Shown: piece after piece, positions 3,128 to 52,451 of the stretch | How positions within the stretch are numbered: the stretch's first letter is position 1 | Layout: each line of letters begins with the position of its first letter | Source of the DNA: Nitrospirota bacterium | GTDB taxonomy: Bacteria; Nitrospirota; UBA9217 | Assembly (NCBI GenBank): GCA_963796285.1 | Contig: CAWCKW010000012.1 | Location: forward strand, 1,504,001 to 1,568,000 | Length of the DNA: 64,000 nt | Direction: 5' to 3' | Made by a program: the position numbers and the translations under genes | Notes under the pieces: model-generated | What the model saw: only the letters and a program-made list of their open reading frames with translations | Told to the model about the DNA's origin: nothing | Database searches by the model: none

Positions 3128-4180
3128 CGCGAATTCTATCTCGAAGTGCAACGGCTTGAGGCCGCGACCTCCGCTGGCGTTCTGTAACCGAGGCACTTTC
3201 TCGGTCGACTGTTAAGCAGATATTCGATCCGGGCTATGTGCTCGGATGCGATCTTACTGAAATCGGTTCCCTTTGGCAAGTACCAACGAATGAGGCCATT
3301 GATGTTCTCATTCGTGCCCCGCTGCCAGGATGAATAGGGATGGGCAAAGTAGCATTTGATTCCAAGCTTGGTCGAGAGCGTTTCGTGTTTGGCATTCTCG
3401 CTCCCATTGTCCAACGTGAGCGTTTGGCGTCCCTTGGCTGGAAGCTTCTTGAGTCGGTCAATGACCGCCTTGTTGGTCTCAGCAGCGCTTTTTCGCTGTA
3501 GCTTGGTGATCAGAACAAGCCGGCTCTTGCGTTCGACCAGGCTATTTAAGGCCGCTTTGCTCTTTCGGGAGACGAGACTGTCGCCCTCCCAGTGACCATA
3601 GTAACGACGACTCTCAACGGACTTCGGCCGGGCATCGATCGGGATCCTGTTGGGAATCTTGGTTTTTCTCACTTTTCTGCCGATGCTCTTATTTCTCCGC
3701 TTCTTGTGGGCTCGGCGCAGCAGATTGATCATCTCCACCCGGTCCGGATTCTGGGGATGGTAGATGTACTGATAGATAGCTTCGTGATTGATGGTTTGCC
3801 CTGGATGGTCAATTCGGATCCGTCCAGAGATTTGCTCCGGAGACCATCCCTGAGCGAGGCCATTCTTCACATATTGCCTGATGAAGTCGTTCTTTAATCG
3901 TCGTGCTGTATTAGCCTTCGTTTTTCGTTCACAAGCCCGAGCATGTGCCCGGCAGGGAACATAGCGTCTTCGTTCCGGCGGTGAGTTCCGCGTGAGCTCG
4001 CGTGAGATTGTGCTTTTGTTCCGGCCAACTGCTTTTGCGATGTCGCCGACACTGAAACCTTCTGAAAGTTGGGCGGCGATGAATTCTCGTTCTTCTTGGC
4101 CAGATGCTTATATGGTTTTGGCATAGACACTTAGAGTAGCATAGCTACCCCAAGTGTTGCACTTCGCTATAGAACTGGCG
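3128..4180 (-). mobile_element. IS30-family insertion sequence, 1053 bp
   Basis: 25-bp imperfect terminal inverted repeats (3128-3152 and 4156-4180, 21/25 match) flanked by direct repeat ATG (3125-3127, 4181-4183); internal transposase. Confidence 0.92.
3136..4124 (-). CDS. IS30-family transposase (frameshifted)
   Basis: WSPEQI, GHWEGD, TLDNGSE, PYSSWQRGTNENINGLIR, LNSRPRKCLGYRTP motifs; N-terminal HTH part (MPKPYKHL) in another frame. Confidence 0.9.
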
Positions 4181-4379
4181 ATGCTTCTGAAGTTACAAAA
4201 CTGAAAATTGGTGAGAGGCAGATGGTTAATATTTTATCCTGAAGCTTACACCTCATGATTGTGTGAGCCGCAGCGCAATTTCAAATGTAAATGATATTCA
4301 ACACTCATTAATAGGATAAACGTTATGAACTGGATATTCAGAATCGTTCGCAAATTCCTGAATACACAGCTAAAGCAGG

Positions 4380-6489
4380 GTGAGTAAACTCGAGCCTAAT
4401 TTGCACAACCGCAACACGACCGGTGTGGCCGTCACTGCCGACAATCCCATCCGGCGTCAGGAAGATGATGTTCTCGGTAGAGCCATCGTTGCCAGATCGT
4501 TCGCCCGGCAGGTTCTCTCACTTGATGCGCGAGAAGGAATTGTAGTGGGTGTGCTTGGTGCATGGGGATATGGGAAAACGTCCTTCATTAACCTTGCTCG
4601 TGATGAGTTCGACCGGGCTGGCGTTCCGGTACTCGACTTTAATCCGTGGATGTTCAGTGGCGCAGAGCAACTCGTTGAATCGTTCTTCGTCGAACTCGCC
4701 GCACAGCTAAAGATGCGCCCCGGCCTCGCCGAGGTGGGTAAGGGCCTTGAGGATTATGGTGAGGCATTTTCCGGCATGGGATGGCTGCCTCTTGTCGGCC
4801 CGTGGATAGAGCGGGGTCGCGGCGCAACCAAGATCTTAGGCAAGATCCTACAGCACCGGAAGGAAGGGGTCAGTGGACGCCGAGCCAAGCTCGAGAAGGC
4901 TGTTACTGATTTAAGCAAACCGATTGTGATTGTACTCGACGACATCGACCGGCTGTCGACATCAGAGATCCGAGACGTATTCAAGCTGGTGCGACTGACT
5001 GCTAACTTTCCCAACATTATCTATATCGTAGCATTTGACCGAAATCGCGTCAAAGAGGCGCTTGCGAGCAGGGGATGCCAAGTCGTGAATATTTGGAAAA
5101 AATCTTTAAAGTCGCAATCGATCTGCCGGTAGTCCCAACGCAAGTGATAAACCAGCAGATCTTATTGGCGGTGAATAACGCCATCGCCGGCATCGAGAAA
5201 ACAGGACCGTTCGACGAACAAGTCTGGCCCGACGTCTTCATGGAGATAATCCGGCCACTTATTCGGAACATGCGAGATGTTCGACGATACGCTGCCGCCG
5301 TCCGCGGGAACGTAGGAGCCCTCAACGGACAGATAGCGCTCGTTGATGTTCTTGCGCTCGAAGCCGTTCGAGTATTTCTTCCCGATGTCTTTAAACACTT
5401 GCACGGTGCCATCGACGGCCTCACGACGACTTCCGAACTCGCATACGGAGGACGTAGCGAGTCAACGCAGTTCAAGGCACAGATCGACGGACTGATTCAA
5501 GCTGCCGGAATGCACAACGGCGTCGTTCGAGCCATGATCGAGCGACTCTTTCCGGCTGGCCAGCGTCATCTCGGTGGTAGCCACTACGGAGGCGACTGGC
5601 AAGGTCGATGGCTCAGGGAGCGTCGGGTCGCTCACAAGGACATTCTACGGCTCTACTTGGAACGCGTGGCGGGCGAAAGCCTGCAAGCCTTCACGGATGC
5701 AGAGAAGGCCTGGACTTACATGGCTAACCGTGAAGCCTTGGACGGCTATCTTCGTTCTCTCGATGCGGCACGACTGCAGGACGTTATCGCGTCGTTAGAG
5801 GCCTATGAAGATCAGTTTGCTCCAGCCCATGTAGTGCCCGGAACAATCGTTCTGCTCAATCTCTTGCCGGATCTTCCAGAACGACAGCGGGGTATGTTAG
5901 GGCTGGACACCAAGCTAGTCGTCTCTCGCGTCTTCTATCGTCTCTTGAAATCTTTGCACGACTCTGCAGCGGTCGAAGCAGCGGTGCGCCAGATACTGCC
6001 CGAGCTGAAGTCTCTCTCTCAAAGATGGAGCTGATTGGTGATGTCGGGTATCGAGAGGGAGCCGGACACAAACTCGTGTCGGAAACAGCGGCAGAAGAAT
6101 TCGAGAAGGCGTGGCGTGACGAAGTTCGATCTGCATCGGTTGATGATCTCGCCAAGGAGCGTGATCTCTTATGGGTATTTCTGCGGGCGAAACGCGAGGC
6201 TCAACCGGCGGAAGGCCTGCTCGACATTGACAATTCGTCCAAACTGACGGTCGCCCTTCTCCGGTCAGCTCGGAGTGAAGTTATGCGTCAATCCATGGGA
6301 AGCCGGGCAGTACGTCGATCCCCACGCCTTGCGTGGGATGTCCTCATCGAACTCTATGGCGCTGAGACAACGCTGAGGGAGCGGATTGAAAGTCTCAAAG
6401 CGACCCACCCCGAAGGCGCTTCAGACCTGCTCGAGCTCGCGGACAAATACTTAGGCGGATGGCGCCCTGGAAACTTCAATAACGACTAG
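4380..6489 (+). CDS. KAP-family P-loop NTPase, split by two frameshifts
   Basis: D.LGR, Walker A GAWGYGKTS, FNPW, Walker B VLDDIDR, YLEKI and NMRDVRR motifs across ORFs 4380-5132, 5075-6034, 6025-6489. Confidence 0.88.
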
Positions 6490-7717: not shown

Positions 7718-9653
7718 TTACGCATCCTTTGCTCTGAGCGACGCAACGGGAGCCACTGCCTTAAGGCGGGTCTTCTCCACAAACGCCTTCACTGATGCAT
7801 ATATACCGTCGACATCCAGACCATACTTCTGCCGGAGGATCTTCTGTGTTCCATGCTCGATATACGCGTCCGGCAGGCCGATGCGGTGCGTCTTAATTCC
7901 ACTAACTCCATTCGCATCGAGGCATTCGAGCACCGCGCTTCCAAAACCGCCGAGGAGCACGTGCTCCTCGATCGTCACGATCCTTCCCGTCTTCTTTGCA
8001 AGGGCGAGGATCATTGCTTCATCGAGCGGCTTCACGAACCGCGCGTTCACCACTGAGACGGAGATCCCTTCGTCCGCAAGTCGTTTTGCCGCTTCGATCG
8101 ACGGGCAGACCATATTGCCGATGGCGATGATCGCCGCCTCGCTCCCGTCCTTGATCAGCTCGGCTTTGCCGATCTTAAGGGTCCGCAATTCCTGGTCCAT
8201 GGGAACGCCGCAGCCCATGCCGCGCGGGTAGCGCACTGCCGAAGGACCGTTGTGTTCCACGGCCGTTTTGAGCATGTGCTGGAGCTCGTTCTCGTCCTTG
8301 GGCGCCATCATCATCATGTTCGGGATATGACGCAGATAGGCAATGTCGAACACGCCGTGATGCGTTGGCCCGTCCTCGCCCACCAGGCCGGCGCGATCAA
8401 GCGCCAGTGTCACCGGCAGGTTCTGGAGACAGAGATCATGCACCACCTGGTCGTAGGCACGCTGGGTAAACGTCGAGTAGATGGCCGCAACCGGATGCAG
8501 CCCCTCCACGGCAAGGCCGCACGCGAAGGTAACGCCGTGGGACTCGGCGATGCCCACGTCAAAGAACCTGTTCGGGAAATTGTTCGGCGAACTTGTCGAG
8601 ACCGGTGCCCTCGGGCATGGCCGCAGAGATGGCGACGATCTTGTGGTTGTCCTCGGCGAGTTTGATCATGGTCTGGCCGAACACCTCCGTGTAGCTCATG
8701 ATGGACTGCTTCTTTGCCGCAACCTTGCCCGTCTCCGGATCAAAAGGCGGGGTGCCGTGGTACTGTGAGGGGCTGCACTCAGCAAATTCACAGCCTTTTC
8801 CTTTTTTAGTGATGACATGCACCAGGACCGGCCAGGTGTATTCCTTGACATTCCGGAACGTCTCGAGCATATGGTCGATATTATGGCCGTCGATGGGGCC
8901 GATGTACTGGAACCCCAGGTCCTCGAACAGCATGCCCGGCACCATCAGGCCCTTGATGGAGTCCTCTGCCTTCTTCGCAAGATTGAACATGGACTCGCCG
9001 ACCCTGGGGATGCCCTGCAGAAAAGTCTTGGTCTCCCGTCGCAGCCTGGTATAAAAATGACCGGTCATCATCCTGCTGAGATAGGATGAAAGCGCGCCCA
9101 CGTTCGGCGATATGGACATCTCATTGTCATTCAGAATGACAATGAGGTTCTTTTTCAAATGTCCGGCCTGGTTCATACCCTCGAACGCCAGCCCCGCGGA
9201 GATGGACCCGTCGCCGATCACGGCGATCACGTGGAAGTTGTCCCCTTTGATGTCCCGCGCCGCTATCATGCCGAGGGCGGCGGAAATGGACGTGCTGGCG
9301 TGTCCCACATCAAAATTGTCGTAAGGACTTTCCTCACGTTTGGGGAATCCGCTGAGCCCGCCGTGCTGCCGGAGCGTCGGGAACTGCTTACGTCTGCCGG
9401 TCAGGAGCTTGTGAGCATAGGCCTGGTGCCCTACATCCCAGACGATCTTGTCCGTGGGCGTATCAAAGGCATAATGAAGCGCGATGGTCAGATCGACGAC
9501 GCCCAGACTCGGCGCAAGGTGGCCGCCGGTCTTCGACACAACGTTGATGATCTCCTGCCGAAGTTCGTCGGCCAGCTTCGGCAATTCCTCCGGGGGAAGA
9601 CCCCTTAGATCTTGCGCATTATTTACATTATCGAGTATCATTTGGTCCCTCAT
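7718..9653 (-). CDS. dxs: 1-deoxy-D-xylulose-5-phosphate synthase (frameshift near 8570)
   Basis: [49 protein letters not shown]. Confidence 0.96.
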
Positions 9654-40806: not shown

Positions 40807-40844
40807 CGATTCCTGTAACTGCTCAATAACTATTTAGCCATTGA

Positions 40845-41063
40845 ATGAATATGAATAAACTACTCCGTTATATTATGGGTGGTATGGTCTTTCTTCTTGG
40901 ATGCTATCTAACCGTCCTTGAAATCGGGATCACATATTCTGAATGGCGAGTATTGCAATCACCAGGCAATGTGACCAGACAATTAGCAATGGTTGCCTTA
41001 TTCACTTTGATAGGGCTTTCAATAGCTTATGGAGGGATTCGAATAATAAGGAAGAAAGAGTAA
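40845..41063 (+). CDS. Small two-TM membrane protein, gene-cassette ORF
   Basis: 72 aa, two hydrophobic helices, AT-rich, followed by attC. Confidence 0.65.
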   Translation: MNMNKLLRYIMGGMVFLLGCYLTVLEIGITYSEWRVLQSPGNVTRQLAMVALFTLIGLSIAYGGIRIIRKKE

Positions 41064-41113
41064 GACTCACAGATTAATTCAGTTGTCCGGAACAATAAGC
41101 AACAGAAGGACAA

Positions 41114-41173
41114 GGCTAACAGCCGGGTCGAGAACGACGCGCTAGAAACGCGCGTCTCACCCGTGCGTTAAAA
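41114..41173 (+). mobile_element. Integron attC recombination site
   Basis: GGCTAAC ... CGGGTCGAG / CTCACCCG with one extrahelical base, inner ACGCGC/GCGCGT stem, ends GTTAAAA; 60 bp. Confidence 0.8.
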
Positions 41174-41298: not shown

Positions 41299-42627
41299 AT
41301 GAACCCTATTTGTATAGTAGACGACGTTTCTTCCATCACTTCCACGGTAGAGAGCATTCTGAAGGACGAGGGGTATCCCGCCATCTCATTTCCGGATGCG
41401 GAGAGCTTCTGGCAGAGGCTCGAGACAATGGAGCCCTCGCTCGTTCTGCTGGATATCTGGCTCCCCGGAATTGACGGCATGCAACTCCTGAAACGTCTGC
41501 ATTCCCGATTCCCCGAACTCCCCGTCATCATGATGAGCGGACATGCCGGTATCGATGCGGCGGTTGCTGCCATAAAGGCCGGCGCCTATGATTTTCTCGA
41601 AAAACCGCTGCAGTTGGAGGTCCTGCTCGACAAGGTGGCGTCTGCCCTTAAGCACCGGCCAGCCGTGAGCAGCGAGACCCTGCCCTCGGATACAAGGCTT
41701 GAGATCGTCAGTGCCGGCCATTCGGTGCCTCCCGGCGTAGTGGACGTGGTGGATTCCCCTGAACCTCAGCGTACCCTCAAAAGGAATGTGGTCCTGAACG
41801 GCATCGGGCTTCTGAGCGGCCGGAACACCGGTGTCATCCTGAGCCCTCTCGGGACCAACGAGGGGATCGTCTTTCAAACGCTTGACGGTCAGACCATCCG
41901 TGGACATATCACGTCCCTTGAGGATTTCTCCCAGACTGGCCCATCGAAGACCTTTTCCGCCAACTCCACCACCCTGGACAACGGCAGGCGGCGGGTGCGC
42001 ACCATTGAGCACCTGATGGCGGTGCTTTCCATGTACGGCATCACCAACGTGCTCGTAAAGGCCGACGAGGAGATACCGAACATAGACGGCTCTGCCAAGG
42101 ATTTTTGCGACCTCATAGAAGCGGCAGGGATAGAGGAACAGCCTGCTAAGACCAAGGTTGCCGTCATCCGCCAGAAGATCGGAGTGGGTAACGAGACAAA
42201 ACATGAAAAGCATCTTATTGCGGAGCCCTTTGAAGGGTTCGAAATATCGATGAGGGTTGACTACCCTTTACCTATCGGCGAACAGGTCCTCACGTTCAAT
42301 CCTGAACGAGGGTCTTTTGCAAAGGAAATAGCCCCGGCCCGCTCCTTCAACACCTTTGAAAATATCGAAATAGCCCAGAAGCTTGGAAAAGTTGGAGGCG
42401 GATATCTCCATTCACACATCATCATGTACGACGGCAAGGTCATCAACACGGAACTCCGTTATCCCGACGAATTCGTTCGCCACAAGATATTGGACCTGAT
42501 CGGAGACCTCTGCCTTCTCGGCCTTCACATCAGAGGACGCATTATTGCCAACATGACCTCTCACGGCTACAATCAGGTTTTGGTGCAACGCTTGTACCAG
42601 GCTGTTCAGAACAGCTCCAGTCGGTAG
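41299..42627 (+). CDS. lpxC: Receiver domain fused to UDP-3-O-acyl-GlcNAc deacetylase LpxC
   Basis: REC: IVDD, LLDIWLPGIDG, MSGH, FLEKP; LpxC: QRTL, TIEHLMA.L, EIP..DGSA, EIAPARSF, EFVRHKILDLIGDL, SH. Confidence 0.9.
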   Translation: MNPICIVDDVSSITSTVESILKDEGYPAISFPDAESFWQRLETMEPSLVLLDIWLPGIDGMQLLKRLHSRFPELPVIMMSGHAGIDAAVAAIKAGAYDFLEKPLQLEVLLDKVASALKHRPAVSSETLPSDTRLEIVSAGHSVPPGVVDVVDSPEPQRTLKRNVVLNGIGLLSGRNTGVILSPLGTNEGIVFQTLDGQTIRGHITSLEDFSQTGPSKTFSANSTTLDNGRRRVRTIEHLMAVLSMYGITNVLVKADEEIPNIDGSAKDFCDLIEAAGIEEQPAKTKVAVIRQKIGVGNETKHEKHLIAEPFEGFEISMRVDYPLPIGEQVLTFNPERGSFAKEIAPARSFNTFENIEIAQKLGKVGGGYLHSHIIMYDGKVINTELRYPDEFVRHKILDLIGDLCLLGLHIRGRIIANMTSHGYNQVLVQRLYQAVQNSSSR

Positions 42628-42716
42628 GTCGGGTAGATCATGGCGAAACCCGGCTGAATGCGATCAAATCGTTCTCTGGAACATGTAGGGTTTCACTTCG
42701 CTCTACCAGCCCGTAG
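42624..42716. repeat. Degenerate GTAG-type REP doublet
   Basis: GTAGGTCGGGTAGA..GAAACCC and inverted GGGTTTC..TCTACC between convergent genes. Confidence 0.5.
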
Positions 42717-42790
42717 GCTTAAAAGCTGCCTTATAACAAGTCATGCAAGGACCTGTGGCCGCTCAATTCTTCAAATAGGCGTACAAGCGC

Positions 42791-44264: not shown

Positions 44265-45101
44265 CTAACGTATGCTCCATCGATGGGGCTTGTGGCAGGT
44301 CTTGCAGCTCTTGCCTGAAGCGTGGACCGGTTTAAGCGCCAGAACCTCTCGGGTATGGCAACGCAGGCAGTCGTCGTCGCTCGGCTTAATGCGGGCATGA
44401 GGCTTGTGGCACTCATAGCAGTTCAGCCGCGCCATCGGCACCCTGTCCGGGAAGGACGTCTTTGACGACTTCCGGTGGCAGGTCAGGCACCGGTCCCGGT
44501 CCGGGATAAAGGCTTCCCGTTGCTTTGGCGAGAAGGCATGGCATCTGAGACAGGAGATATTCTCCATTCCCACTCCGTGAATTTCCCAATTCTTGTGACA
44601 GCGAAGACAGGCGTCCTTGTCGGGCCTGAAGGAATGCACCGTCCGGCTGTGACAATCCTTGCAAGCGAGCTTTTCCATAAAGACGTGCCGCGCATGACCC
44701 GTTGACTTATTCACGGTCAGTGACCCCTGGGCAGCCTCATCCCAGTGGCACTTCGTGCAGGTCTTCCACGGGGTCTCGTTCCCGTGCGGTTCGGGCGTTT
44801 TCCGGCCCGGTGAAAAAATGAATTTGACCAGCAACCCGTTCTGCTCCATCATGCCGAGCTGGTGGCATCCCTGGCATACGATATTCCTGTGGCCGGAGAG
44901 CTTCCATGCCGTGTACGCCTCTTCCATGAGATGGCAGCTGTTGCAGAACTCGGGATCTTTTTGGATATAGTTGTAGTAGCGGACCGCCAGCACGATACCC
45001 AGGACCGAAATGATGAACATGAGGGAAACAATGATGACCTTGTCCCGCGGGCTGAGACCCTGTTCGAGCTTGTCGATTATTTTGGAGATTAGTTTATACA
45101 T
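44265..45101 (-). CDS. Membrane-anchored decaheme c-type cytochrome
   Basis: N-terminal TM then ten CxxCH motifs; PEFCNSCH.M...Y..W..S.H resembles NapC/NirT start. Confidence 0.9.
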   Translation of the reverse strand: MYKLISKIIDKLEQGLSPRDKVIIVSLMFIISVLGIVLAVRYYNYIQKDPEFCNSCHLMEEAYTAWKLSGHRNIVCQGCHQLGMMEQNGLLVKFIFSPGRKTPEPHGNETPWKTCTKCHWDEAAQGSLTVNKSTGHARHVFMEKLACKDCHSRTVHSFRPDKDACLRCHKNWEIHGVGMENISCLRCHAFSPKQREAFIPDRDRCLTCHRKSSKTSFPDRVPMARLNCYECHKPHARIKPSDDDCLRCHTREVLALKPVHASGKSCKTCHKPHRWSIR

Positions 45102-45180
45102 GGTAAGATCAGGTTTTAGGATCCGGAGGCCCGACTTCACATCGGTTACACGTGATATGTTCCTAGTTCCCGGCTCCTGA

Positions 45181-46197
45181 CTACTGTATTAAGCGCTCTG
45201 CGATCTGCACGGCGTTCAGCGCCGCGCCCTTGCGCAGGTTGTCGGACACGATCCACATATTGATGCCATTCGGGATCGACTCGTCTTCCCTGATCCTGCC
45301 CACGTAGACCTCGTCCTTGCCCGCCACATCGATCGCAAGCGGATAGAGGTTTCTCTTCGGATCATCGTACACGATAATGCCCGGTGCAGCCGAAAGGATG
45401 GCCCGTGCTTCGTTGGCCGATATGTTCTTCTCCGTCTCGATGTTCACGGACTCGGAGTGGCAGCGGAACACCGGTACGCGGACCGTTGTGGCGGTCACGC
45501 GGATGGAATCGTCTCCCATGATCTTCCTCGTCTCGTTCACCATCTTCATCTCTTCCTTGGTGTAGCCGTTGTCGAGGAAGGCATCGATATGCGGGAGACA
45601 ATTGAACGCGATCTGGTGCGGATAGACCTTCGTTTCAATATCCCTGAAGTTCAGGAGCGCGACGGTCTGTCCCGCCAGCTCATCTATGGCATCCTTGCCC
45701 GTTCCGGAAACAGACTGAAAGGTCGTGACCACGATGCGCTTGATCTTCACAGCGTCATGGATCGGTTTCAGCACCATGACCATGCCCGATGGTGGAGCAG
45801 TTCGGGTTGGCAATGATGCCCGCTGTGCTTCGCGATCGCATGGGCGTTCACCTCCGGCACCACAAGCGGCACCATCGGTTCCATGCGGAAGGCGCTCGAG
45901 TTGTCAATGACCACGGCGCCGGACTTCACCGCTGCCGGGGCGAACTCTATGCTGCGTTCGGCACCTGCCGAAAAGAGCGCGATGTCCACGTCCTTGAACG
46001 CGTCCTTGGTCAACTTCCGGACAACCAGCTTCTTGCCGTTAAACTCGACCCTCTCGCCCTCGGAACGCTCCGACGCAAGCGGGATCAGCTCGGACACCGG
46101 GAAATTCGCGCTCCTCGAGGATTTCGATCATTTCCCTGCCCACAGCGCCGGTGGCGCCGACAACGGCAACTACATATTTAGTTTTTTTCTTGAGCAT
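45181..46197 (-). CDS. asd: Aspartate-semialdehyde dehydrogenase, common bacterial type (frameshifted)
   Basis: VAVVGATGAVG, ALFSAG, IDNSSAFRM, VPEVN, IANPNCST, QSVSGTG, YTKEEMKM, DNLRKGAALNAVQIAE across frames. Confidence 0.92.
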
Positions 46198-46236
46198 GAG
46201 TTTAAAGAAAATTTAAAACCTTTCACGTAAGGAGTC

Positions 46237-46332
46237 CGTCATTCCCGAATGATTCTATCGGGAATCCAGCTGCTTCATAAATAAATGAGGAGACACAACG
46301 CCTCTGGATTCCGGGTCAAGCCCGGAATGACG
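46237..46332. repeat. REP-like palindromic element (GTCATTCC...GGAATGAC)
   Basis: CGTCATTCCCGA..TCGGGAATCCAG ... CTGGATTCCGGGTCAAGCCCGGAATGACG; terminal and internal inverted repeats. Confidence 0.8.
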
Positions 46333-46351
46333 ATTTACAGGGGAATTTCTT

Positions 46352-47464
46352 CTATTTCTCCACCACGATCCGCAGCATGCGCCGAAGCGGTTCCGCCGCG
46401 CCCCACAGGAGCTGGTCGCCGCAGGTGAAGGCGTTCAGGAACGTCGGCCCCATGTTCATCTTGCGCAATCGTCCGATCGGCACGGTGAGCGTGCCGGTGA
46501 TCGCCGCCGGGGTCAGCTCGCGTATGGTTATCTCACGATTATTCGGGACGACCTTGACCCACTTGTTGTGCTTGGCGATCATGTCGGTGATCTCGGCAAG
46601 AGGCACGTCCCTGGTCATTTTTATCGTCAAGGCCTGGCTGTGGCAGCGCATGGCGCCGACGCGCACGCAGGTCCCGTCGATCGGGATCGGATTGCCTTCG
46701 CGGCCCAGGATCTTGTTCGTCTCGGCCTGGCCCTTCCACTCTTCCTTGCTCTGTCCGTTGTCGAGCTGCTTGTCGATCCAGGGGATGACAGAACCGGCAA
46801 GCGGCACACCGAAGAACTCTTTGGGATACGCATCGGAGCGGATGTGGTCGGACACCTTGCGGTCGATCTCGAGGATCGCGCCTGACGGGTCGTCCAGCAG
46901 GTCTTTACCGTGCCATGGATAGAACCCATCTGCTTCAGCAGCTCGCGCATGTTGTTCGCGCCCGCGCCCGAGGCCGCCTGGTAGGTCATGGCGCTCATCC
47001 ATTCCACCAGCCCGCGCTCGTACAGCCCGCCCAGGGCCATGAGCATGAGCGACACCGTGCAGTTTCCGCCGATGTAGTTCTTGATGCCCTTGGCCATGCC
47101 GTTCTTGATCACGTTCAGGTTGACCGGATCGAGGATGATGATGGCGTCTTTGTCCATGCGAAGGGCGGACGCAGCATCGATCCAGTAGCCCTTCCAGCCG
47201 GCAGCGCGCAGCTTGGGATAAACCTCGTTCGTGTAATCGCCACCCTGGCAGGAGACAATGGTCATCCATCGCCTTCAGCTCATCGATGTTCTTGGCATCC
47301 TTGAGCGCCGGGACGTCCTTGCCGATATTCGGCCCCTTGCCGCCAACGTTCGAGGTGGTGAAGAACACCGGGTCGATAAGATTGAAATCCTTTTCCTCGT
47401 TCATGCGGCCCATGAGCACCGAGCCCACCATGCCGCGCCAACCGATAAAGCCTACTCGCATCAT
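46352..47464 (-). CDS. asd: Aspartate-semialdehyde dehydrogenase, gamma/beta-proteobacterial type (frameshifted)
   Basis: [79 protein letters not shown]. Confidence 0.94.
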
Positions 47465-47546
47465 TGTTCTATTCCCCTCAGTTTTCATATTCGCAATCTT
47501 TAGCTCTAGACCACGCGTACTCCGCAATCCGAATCGTAGTCCGCAA

Positions 47547-49499: not shown

Positions 49500-49622
49500 T
49501 TAAACCCTCCTAAGACTTATCACTGATGTACACGGATATAGATCGAAGCTTACGATTCATCGTGTCTATCTCGTCCATTCGTGTCATTCGTGTCTCTGTT
49601 TGTGTCTCCGTGGTGAAAATTA

Positions 49623-50886
49623 TTACTTCAGTTCTTCCGGCCTTCCGATCCTGCCGAGCACAGCCGATGCGGCCGCGATCGCCGGGATTGGAGAGATAGA
49701 CCTCGCTCTTGGGGTGCCCCATCCTGCCGACAAAGTTCCGGTTCGTCGTGGCAATGGCGCGCTCACCGGCGGCAAGGATGCCCATATGGCCGCCCAGACA
49801 GGGGCCGCAGGTCGGCGTGCTGAAGGCCGCGCCGGCATCGATGAAGATGTCCACGAGGCCTTCTTTAATGCACTGTTTATAGATCGCCTGCGTGGCCGGG
49901 ATCACGATCATGCGGACATAGGGATGCACTTTGTGGCCCTTGATGACCCTGGCCGCCTCACGCATGTCCTCGATCCTGTCCGTTCGTACAGGAACCGACA
50001 ACGGACTGGTCGATATTGATGGCCGCAAGCTGGCTTACCGGCTTCACGTTCTCGGGAAGATGCGGGCAGGCGATCTGCGGCTCCATGCCGGTCAGATCGT
50101 ACTCGCGCACATCCACATAGTTCGCCTTCTTGTCGCTCTTGATAGAACTTATATTTCCGCTGGGCGCGCTTCGCAACATACTTCTCGGTGATCTCATCGG
50201 GCTCGATGATGCCGTTCTTGCCGCCGGCCTCGATGGCCATATTGCAGATCGTCAAACGACCGTACATCGGGAGTTTTTTGATCACCTCGCCGGTAAACTC
50301 CATGGCACGGTACAGGGCTCCGTCCACACCGATATCGCCGATGGTGCGGAGAATGATGTCCTTGCCGCCGACCCACTTGCCGAGCTTGCCCTTGTAGATG
50401 AACTTCATGCTCTCCGGCACCTTGAACCAGGCCTCACCCGTGATCATGGCAGCGGCGACATCGGTGCTGCCCACGCCGGTCGAGAACGCGCCCAGCCCGC
50501 CGTAGGTGCAGGTGTGGCTGTCAGCGCCGATCACCACGTCGCCGGGCACCACGATCCCCTGCTCCGGAAGGAGCGCATGCTCGATGCCCATCCTGCCGAC
50601 CTCGAAATACAGGGAGAGGTCATGCTCCCGCGAGAATTGGCGGAGCAGGTTGCACTGTTCAGCCGAGGCGATGTCCTTGTTCGGCGCAAAGTGGTCGGGA
50701 ATGAGCGCGATCCGCTCGGGATCGAACACCTTTTTCGCCCCCGTCGCGCGAAACTCCTTGATCGAGATCGGGCGCCGTGATATCGTTCGCGAGCACGAGA
50801 TCGAGCTTCGCGTTGATCAGTTCGCCGGGCTTCACTTCTTTTTTGCCGCAGTGCGCGGCCAGTATCTTTTCAGTAATGGTCATCAT
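49623..50886 (-). CDS. leuC: 3-isopropylmalate dehydratase large subunit (several frameshifts)
   Basis: [56 protein letters not shown]. Confidence 0.93.
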
Positions 50887-50920
50887 AGGTTTTTGACTAT
50901 ACAATATCCCTTATTCAGAT

Positions 50921-52451
<1,531 letters not shown>

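Follow-up and report, generated by a model that had tools for sequence, protein, structure and literature searches.

A receiver-LpxC fusion from a Nitrospirota genome belongs to a multi-phylum family that points to an NtrX-derived response regulator with a deacetylase output

LpxC is a control point of lipopolysaccharide synthesis and an antibiotic target. The family (PF03331, TIGR00325) includes structures from E. coli, P. aeruginosa, and Aquifex. The zinc ion is reported to be bound by H79, H238, and D242, with E78 and H265 as catalytic residues, and a segment termed insertion II is described as forming the acyl tunnel and contributing to specificity (PMC13333357). LpxC activity is described as being controlled by partner proteins (MurA, LapB) or by proteolysis (PMC13333357, PMC12444477). 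A 2025 review states that very little is known about LpxC regulation outside the Proteobacteria (PMC12444477), and a 2026 review presents direct control of LpxC activity as an emerging paradigm, exemplified by LapB and MurA (PMC13333357); the word "fusion" is absent from the retrieved text of both. The only other LpxC fusion met in the retrieved literature is LpxC-FabZ (NF009667; PMC3087551, 10.1101/2025.10.16.682753), which features a C-terminal metabolic domain and falls in an LpxC clade separate from the receiver fusions. In a full-text search of openly licensed papers, receiver-LpxC fusions were nowhere described, in agreement with an initial annotation of this DNA that knew of no characterisation; output-domain censuses in subscription papers or supplements could list it. 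The NtrX-derived receiver-LpxC family is apparently undescribed.

Transcriptional control of lpxC by two-component systems has been reported. In Desulfovibrio, a kinase and a GAFTGA-bearing sigma54 regulator have lpxC as their sole target, and loss of the kinase raises lpxC (PMC3333781, PMC4045070, PMC4641369). This system, DVU2931/DVU2934 (Dde_3000/Dde_3003), is described as dedicated to lpxC, with a kinase that lowers output in normal growth, and in Syntrophobacter lpxC is reported to lie directly upstream of the orthologous operon. DVU2934/Dde_3003 is a putative counterpart of NtrX. In alphaproteobacteria NtrYX is reported to lower lpxC transcription, an effect that is indirect in Rhodobacter (PMC7240162, PMC12444477), and DUF4390 is described as PlrP, a periplasmic partner of NtrYX-family systems (PMC13001219). 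Response regulators with enzymatic outputs include CheB, PleD/WspR, and RpfG. These proteins carry receiver and enzyme in one chain, as the fusion does, however, their outputs are signalling enzymes and the output of the fusion is a biosynthetic cell-envelope enzyme.

The fusion gene lies in a 64,000-nucleotide stretch of a Nitrospirota genome, the window (Table 1). The initial annotation had described one uninterrupted 442-aa reading frame, with no histidine kinase or other lpx gene adjacent, and had proposed a search for proteins carrying both domains. ORF calls and Pfam (Response_reg, E 7e-28; LpxC, E 2e-71) confirm an unbroken frame, and both domains were found in 120/120 listed homologues (the best 120 of 4812; 84-96% identity, 99-100% coverage). 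This check matters because several housekeeping genes of the contig are split by apparent frameshifts, which is what would favour an assembly or frameshift artefact that welded two genes together. The homologues are on independent contigs, which argues against a chimera, and the fusion is also present in 36/80 genome loci, the isolate Desulfopila sp. IMCC35006 among them; the artefact is refuted by the homologues and is left with next to no probability. The receiver-LpxC fusion is real and conserved. Among the matches listed, the closest named homologues are Nitrospirota, as are the two best Atlas clusters.

Table 1. Positions of the fusion gene and its parts in the window
Feature	Residues	Nucleotides	Strand	Basis or remark
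REC-LpxC fusion gene	442 aa	41299..42627	+	Pfam, NCBIfam, homologues; monocistronic, flanking housekeeping genes on the minus strand
NtrX-type receiver	aa 4-113	41308..41637	+	Pfam; best receiver match NtrX in NCBIfam and PDB; conservation
Linker	aa 119-155	41653..41763	+	AAA+ and HTH of longer relatives missing here
LpxC-fold zinc deacetylase (predicted)	aa 157-433	41767..42597	+	Pfam, TIGR00325, PDB alignment, conservation, Foldseek
Remodelled insertion-II/acyl-tunnel segment	aa 349-373	42343..42417	+	Alignment to P. aeruginosa LpxC, residue comparison

The isolation of the gene described in the initial annotation was also found here: a Pfam scan of 68 ORFs of the window returned no histidine kinase or other lpx gene, and the fusion ORF was the sole match to receiver or LpxC profiles among 280 six-frame ORFs of at least 70 aa. 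Its GC3 (0.67) is typical of the window, and it is therefore not a recent arrival. Scans for sigma70 promoters and terminators gave results at chance level. None of 1183 matching plasmid records covers 80% of the protein; separately, several plasmids of 210-370 kb from Klebsiella and Citrobacter carry an annotated stand-alone lpxC gene unrelated to the fusion. Two AlphaFold2 models (pLDDT 86, pTM 0.70-0.71) support both folds and are uninformative about the receiver-LpxC interface. In these models the front part of the linker is disordered and its end part is a predicted beta strand continuous with LpxC. A motif resembling SDTRLE is found in the linker of 112/121 close sequences.

The receiver features the complete canonical phosphorylatable set that the initial annotation had listed: D8/D9, the phosphoacceptor D52 in a D-I-W motif (LLDIWLP; codon at nt 41452-41454), S80-G-H, and K102-P. 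D8, D9, D52, and K102 are invariant in 121/121 close sequences and S80 is kept in 120/121. The NCBIfam receiver scores place NtrX (105 bits) ahead of FixJ (99) and NtrC (97) by a small margin, the best PDB matches are the NtrX structures 4d6x and 5m7n, and the D-x-W and SGH signature is common to the window protein and free NtrX. At a set of positions that we take to be kinase-facing, the window receiver scores 3.53 against receivers encoded next to NtrY, whose own range is 3.55-4.25, and unrelated receivers reach at most 1.69 in this comparison, which includes a single NtrC-type control. In signature and kinase-facing residues the fusion thus resembles NtrX of the NtrYX-PlrSR systems with DUF4390 (PMC13001219). 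Unlike NtrX, the window protein lacks AAA+ and DNA-binding HTH domains, its output is an enzyme, and its 105 bits fall below the NtrX equivalog cut-off of 600. By these comparisons the protein is NtrX-derived, not an NtrX.

The LpxC domain scores above the cut-offs of TIGR00325 (204 versus 187 bits) and of Pfam LpxC (241 versus 27), and Foldseek aligns the fusion model to P. aeruginosa LpxC with a target TM of 0.85-0.89. The counterparts of the zinc and catalytic set are all present, as H238, H395, and D399 and as E237 and H422 (E237-H238 at nt 42007-42012, H395-K396-x-x-D399 at nt 42481-42495, H422 at nt 42562-42564). E237, H238, H395, K396, D399, D403, and H422 are invariant in 121/121 close sequences, so that the EH, HKxLD, and late-His motifs read in the initial annotation hold. 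Its description of the enzyme as apparently active stands for the catalytic centre, which is intact, and is weakened by the acyl-tunnel segment, which is unusual. Fold, zinc ligands, and acid-base residues are shared with ordinary LpxC, and the fusion differs in its N-terminal receiver, its polar or bulky tunnel residues, and a Ser in place of T191.

The insertion-II segment is present in the window protein with low pLDDT (53-70 for aa 351-370), and it carries S349, N351, T352, N355, A359, Y369, and H373, residues that presumably line the tunnel; L172, near the N-terminus of the LpxC domain, replaces the usual His. N351, N355, and H373 are found in 16/16 sequences of the window's branch (six of them close) and in 0/411 other LpxC domains, namely 171 from a set of fused and stand-alone proteins and 240 further stand-alone ones. 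The branch also has T352 and A359, lacks a His at 172, and has S349 and Y369 in most members. The position of the catalytic-accessory T191 is Ser (S349) in 121/121 close sequences and 15/16 branch sequences versus Thr in 169/171 and 240/240 elsewhere, a conservative change. The other fusions have Arg or Lys at position 369 (64/73 versus 0/98) and keep T191 in 72/73.

There are signs that the window's branch is mobile. The fusion of this Nitrospirota genome is 79% identical to that of Desulfopila, synonymous sites are not saturated between the two (pS 0.44-0.53), a Spirochaetota-dominated cluster is within the three best Atlas matches, and the branch apparently moved between phyla. Seven loci represent the branch (the window, L001-L005, and L025). 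None of the seven has an adjacent NtrY-type kinase and no neighbour is common to them; L004 adjoins a gene with an LptA/LptD_N domain. Two branch members, P0123 and P0163, lack a receiver and may be fragments. Horizontal movement and a changed pocket would fit an accessory enzyme with an altered acyl preference. In such a reading, the branch would be a phospho-regulated deacetylase that works beside a housekeeping lpxC on another UDP-sugar, whose position 3 would bear a short chain, a polar group, or no acyl group, and its gene would have passed between phyla. This reading draws on coordinated changes from hydrophobic to polar or bulky residues in the tunnel segment (N351, T352, N355, A359, H373) and the loss of His 172 being fixed in 121/121 close and 16/16 branch sequences, on the role reported for insertion II in specificity (PMC13333357), and on the cross-phylum similarity without common neighbours. 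However, the protein scores above the lpxC equivalog cut-off, it retains every zinc and acid-base residue, the other members of the parent clade keep T191 and G-F, and no sugar-modifying partner gene is common to the loci of the branch. Among the best 120 of about 8000 matches to each of two stand-alone LpxC proteins, from a Desulfobacterales and a Nitrospirota locus, there was no named genome of the window's lineage or of Desulfocapsaceae. The accessory reading is judged the less likely one, and the window's enzyme probably still supplies lipid A synthesis, perhaps with an acyl chain that is shorter.

The window protein is, by sequence comparison, the shortest architecture (REC-LpxC) of a multi-phylum family that arose from an ntrX-lpxC fusion. 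Both profiles match 61 of the 150 listed representatives of 50%-identity clusters, many of them fragmentary, and 15 of the 61 also carry a sigma54-type AAA domain (650-736 aa). Three full-length architectures occur: REC-AAA-lid-(HTH)-LpxC (650-736 aa), REC-HTH-LpxC (491-505 aa), and REC-LpxC (412-461 aa). The fused LpxC domains cluster apart from stand-alone LpxC and LpxC-FabZ (SH-aLRT 98 and 95 in quick trees). The expectation in the initial annotation that similar fusions may be in databases proved right: at least 17 Atlas clusters with 50 or more members, among the 30 matches listed, have the domain pair, and the architecture is therefore already in databases, annotated simply as LpxC. A genome scan, which is a sample and not a census, yielded 36 fusions and 44 stand-alone genes among the best 80 of at least 601 candidate loci. 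The 36 fused loci are found in Nitrospirota, Desulfocapsaceae (including Desulfopila sp. IMCC35006, a cultured carrier), Desulfomonile, Syntrophorhabdus, Nitrospinota, Binatia, and Thermoanaerobaculia/Holophagae. This range leaves aside doubtful bin labels, namely an archaeal (L006) and an enterobacterial one (L032), both on 3-4 kb contigs, and a "Myxococcota" label (L001) that nests among Desulfocapsaceae. L012 is broken into two ORFs, and L025 and L028 are cut off by the ends of their contigs. In a Thermoanaerobaculia bin, a second, partial LpxC-like stretch lies directly downstream of the REC-LpxC gene (L020:3717-4613).

Gene order points to the origin of the fusion. Six of the 36 fused genes lie directly behind an NtrY-type kinase with a gap of at most 46 bp, and three of these overlap the kinase; five of the six kinases have the Pfam order NtrY_N-HAMP-PAS-HisKA-HATPase, with L015 near-identical to L011. 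In three of the six, DUF4390 is in front and no lpxC precedes it. The remaining 30/36, like the window gene, are orphans in the sense that they have no adjacent NtrY-type kinase. Unfused lpxC-DUF4390-kinase-ntrX operons occur at 3/44 stand-alone loci (L050, L060, L080), and at L068 lpxC-DUF4390 is followed by the contig edge. Two free and two long fused proteins were scanned, and each has NtrX as its best regulator match. From the operons, the kinase adjacency, the NtrX matches, and the identity of DUF4390, the fusion is therefore one between ntrX and the lpxC gene of the same operon. The resemblance to NtrX stated in the initial annotation thereby gains a line of descent, some relatives still being encoded directly behind an NtrY-type kinase. 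Tandem duplication would give the gene order of the fusion, which is speculation. 

Promoters were scored against a sigma54 consensus that we assume to be the standard one. A sigma54-like promoter (at least 11 of 13) precedes 9/44 stand-alone lpxC genes versus 0/33 fusions with enough upstream sequence. The stand-alone genes concerned (L047, L048, L049, L050, L052, L053, L069, L075) are from Methylomirabilota/Rokubacteria, Acidobacteriota, Nitrospirota, and Myxococcota, and one of the nine positives comes from Campylobacterales. L060 and L080 reach just 10, L068 has none, and for operon-internal fusions the region ahead of DUF4390 or ntrY scored at most 9. The comparison suggests that sigma54 control of lpxC reaches well beyond Desulfovibrio. 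Taken with the reported Desulfovibrio and alphaproteobacterial systems, it indicates that NtrYX and lpxC were probably linked by transcription in the ancestor. The sigma54 promoter and the intact GAFTGA activator of DVU2931/DVU2934 are both lost in the fusions.

The fate of the activator domain carries the core argument for phospho-control. The Walker-B DE, GAFTGA, and arginine-finger motifs are missing in 23/23 long fusions, three of which are near-identical, whereas both complete free NtrX proteins keep them. Nine changes are required to account for the presence of AAA across 43 fused rows of the tree, and the hypothesis of one loss is rejected (AU p 5e-50). The phosphoacceptor Asp, by contrast, persists in 70/72 diverse receivers with the column filled and the Lys in 73/74. 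Many of the sequences counted in these comparisons are relatives, so that the counts overstate independence. The receiver tree carries little weight because it has few columns, and the other trees are quick trees. As judged by this comparison, ntrX was fused to lpxC once, and the activator part decayed and was deleted several times with the receiver kept. With the DNA-side machinery gone and the Asp kept, the enzyme would be the only remaining output, and we infer that a transcriptional NtrYX-lpxC circuit was turned into direct phospho-control of the enzyme. The initial proposal that lipid A flux may be switched by two-component phosphorylation is strengthened insofar as a phosphorylatable receiver was kept while the activator decayed; that the window protein itself carries this flux is doubtful because of the polar tunnel substitutions and the apparent cross-phylum move.

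The receiver could also be a passenger or a phosphate sink, so that the fusion couples expression only and enzyme activity is constitutive. Purifying selection acts on the window's receiver, however, it evolves faster than the LpxC domain, with a dN/dS of ~0.21 versus L002 and ~0.27 versus Desulfopila (~0.2-0.27 overall) compared to 0.10 for LpxC, as a passenger might. A few clade members have no receiver, and the Asp is lost in two related fusions, P0138 and P0150, pseudo-receivers with a replaced acceptor that are nested among intact long forms. A passenger would not readily explain why the Asp outlasted an AAA domain that decayed throughout and was repeatedly deleted, nor why the receiver is kept although most fused genes lie outside the operon. 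This explanation is given little credence, and it is likely that the receiver controls the enzyme in some way.

Control might also act on how much enzyme is present or where it is located instead of on its catalytic rate, by phospho-dependent proteolysis or by tethering to a membrane kinase. LpxC is described as commonly being under proteolytic control (PMC12444477, PMC13333357), and the predicted disorder at the front of the linker means that a fixed allosteric contact would not be required. No recurring protease or adaptor neighbour was found among the genes scanned, however, and the receiver survives across many lineages with differing linkers, which makes this route improbable. The best overall explanation is that the protein is a response regulator of the NtrYX family with an LpxC-type deacetylase output (probability roughly 0.5). 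The phosphorylation of D52 would be set by an NtrY-type kinase/phosphatase in the membrane, encoded at another site in the genome, and a periplasmic DUF4390 (PlrP-like) partner would probably tune that kinase. The state of the receiver would in turn gate deacetylation of the presumed substrate, UDP-3-O-acyl-GlcNAc, by relief of autoinhibition or by phospho-dependent dimerisation. The phosphorylated form would most likely be the active one, following the ancestral circuit, in which lpxC was presumably turned on by a phosphorylated sigma54 activator. The more specific proposal, that an envelope-sensing NtrY/DUF4390 pair gates an LpxC-type deacetylase by Asp phosphorylation in several non-proteobacterial phyla, with the window's branch as a portable form with a retooled acyl tunnel, is tentative and is put at slightly under even odds. 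Some relatives of the fusion sit in DUF4390-ntrY operons, whereas the window gene is an orphan.

Where ordinary LpxC is controlled by partners or proteolysis, the fusion features a covalently attached putative phospho-switch. If this is correct, some environmental bacteria would switch a lipid A enzyme directly by phosphorylation and not via control of the gene or of breakdown, and the switch would be the counterpart, based on phosphorylation, of control by YejM-LapB-FtsH. An LpxC gated by phosphorylation within one chain would add another control mechanism and offer a tool for mapping allosteric sites, and NtrYX, whose signal is debated, would gain one output that can be measured. The graded series from the free operon through REC-dead AAA-LpxC and REC-HTH-LpxC to REC-LpxC would display a transcriptional circuit turning post-translational.

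Several other features of the window were observed. Just upstream of the fusion, positions 40835-41170 (+) hold a solitary unit resembling an integron cassette with a 72-aa hydrophobic ORF (40845-41063) and a hairpin at 41116-41170 (bottom strand -17.8 kcal/mol, z -4.2) that we take to be attC-like; the fusion lies outside the cassette. Right after the fusion stop codon, a degenerate inverted pair at 42623-42722 (-14.5 kcal/mol, a value with no shuffle control), presumably REP-like, possibly serves as a terminator between convergent genes. Genes for a KAP NTPase, dxs, two copies of asd, leuC, and leuA are split across frames (4380-6031, 7721-9653, 45184-47527, 49513-52451), which suggests indel errors in the contig. 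At 3139-6486 an integrase-core (rve) ORF adjoins the KAP-family P-loop NTPase in a region of lower GC3, which may be a small island of mobile or defence genes. Pfam also identifies a multiheme cytochrome c at 44268-45140 (-), with a NapC/NirT-like N-terminus and a c7/c3-like C-terminus.
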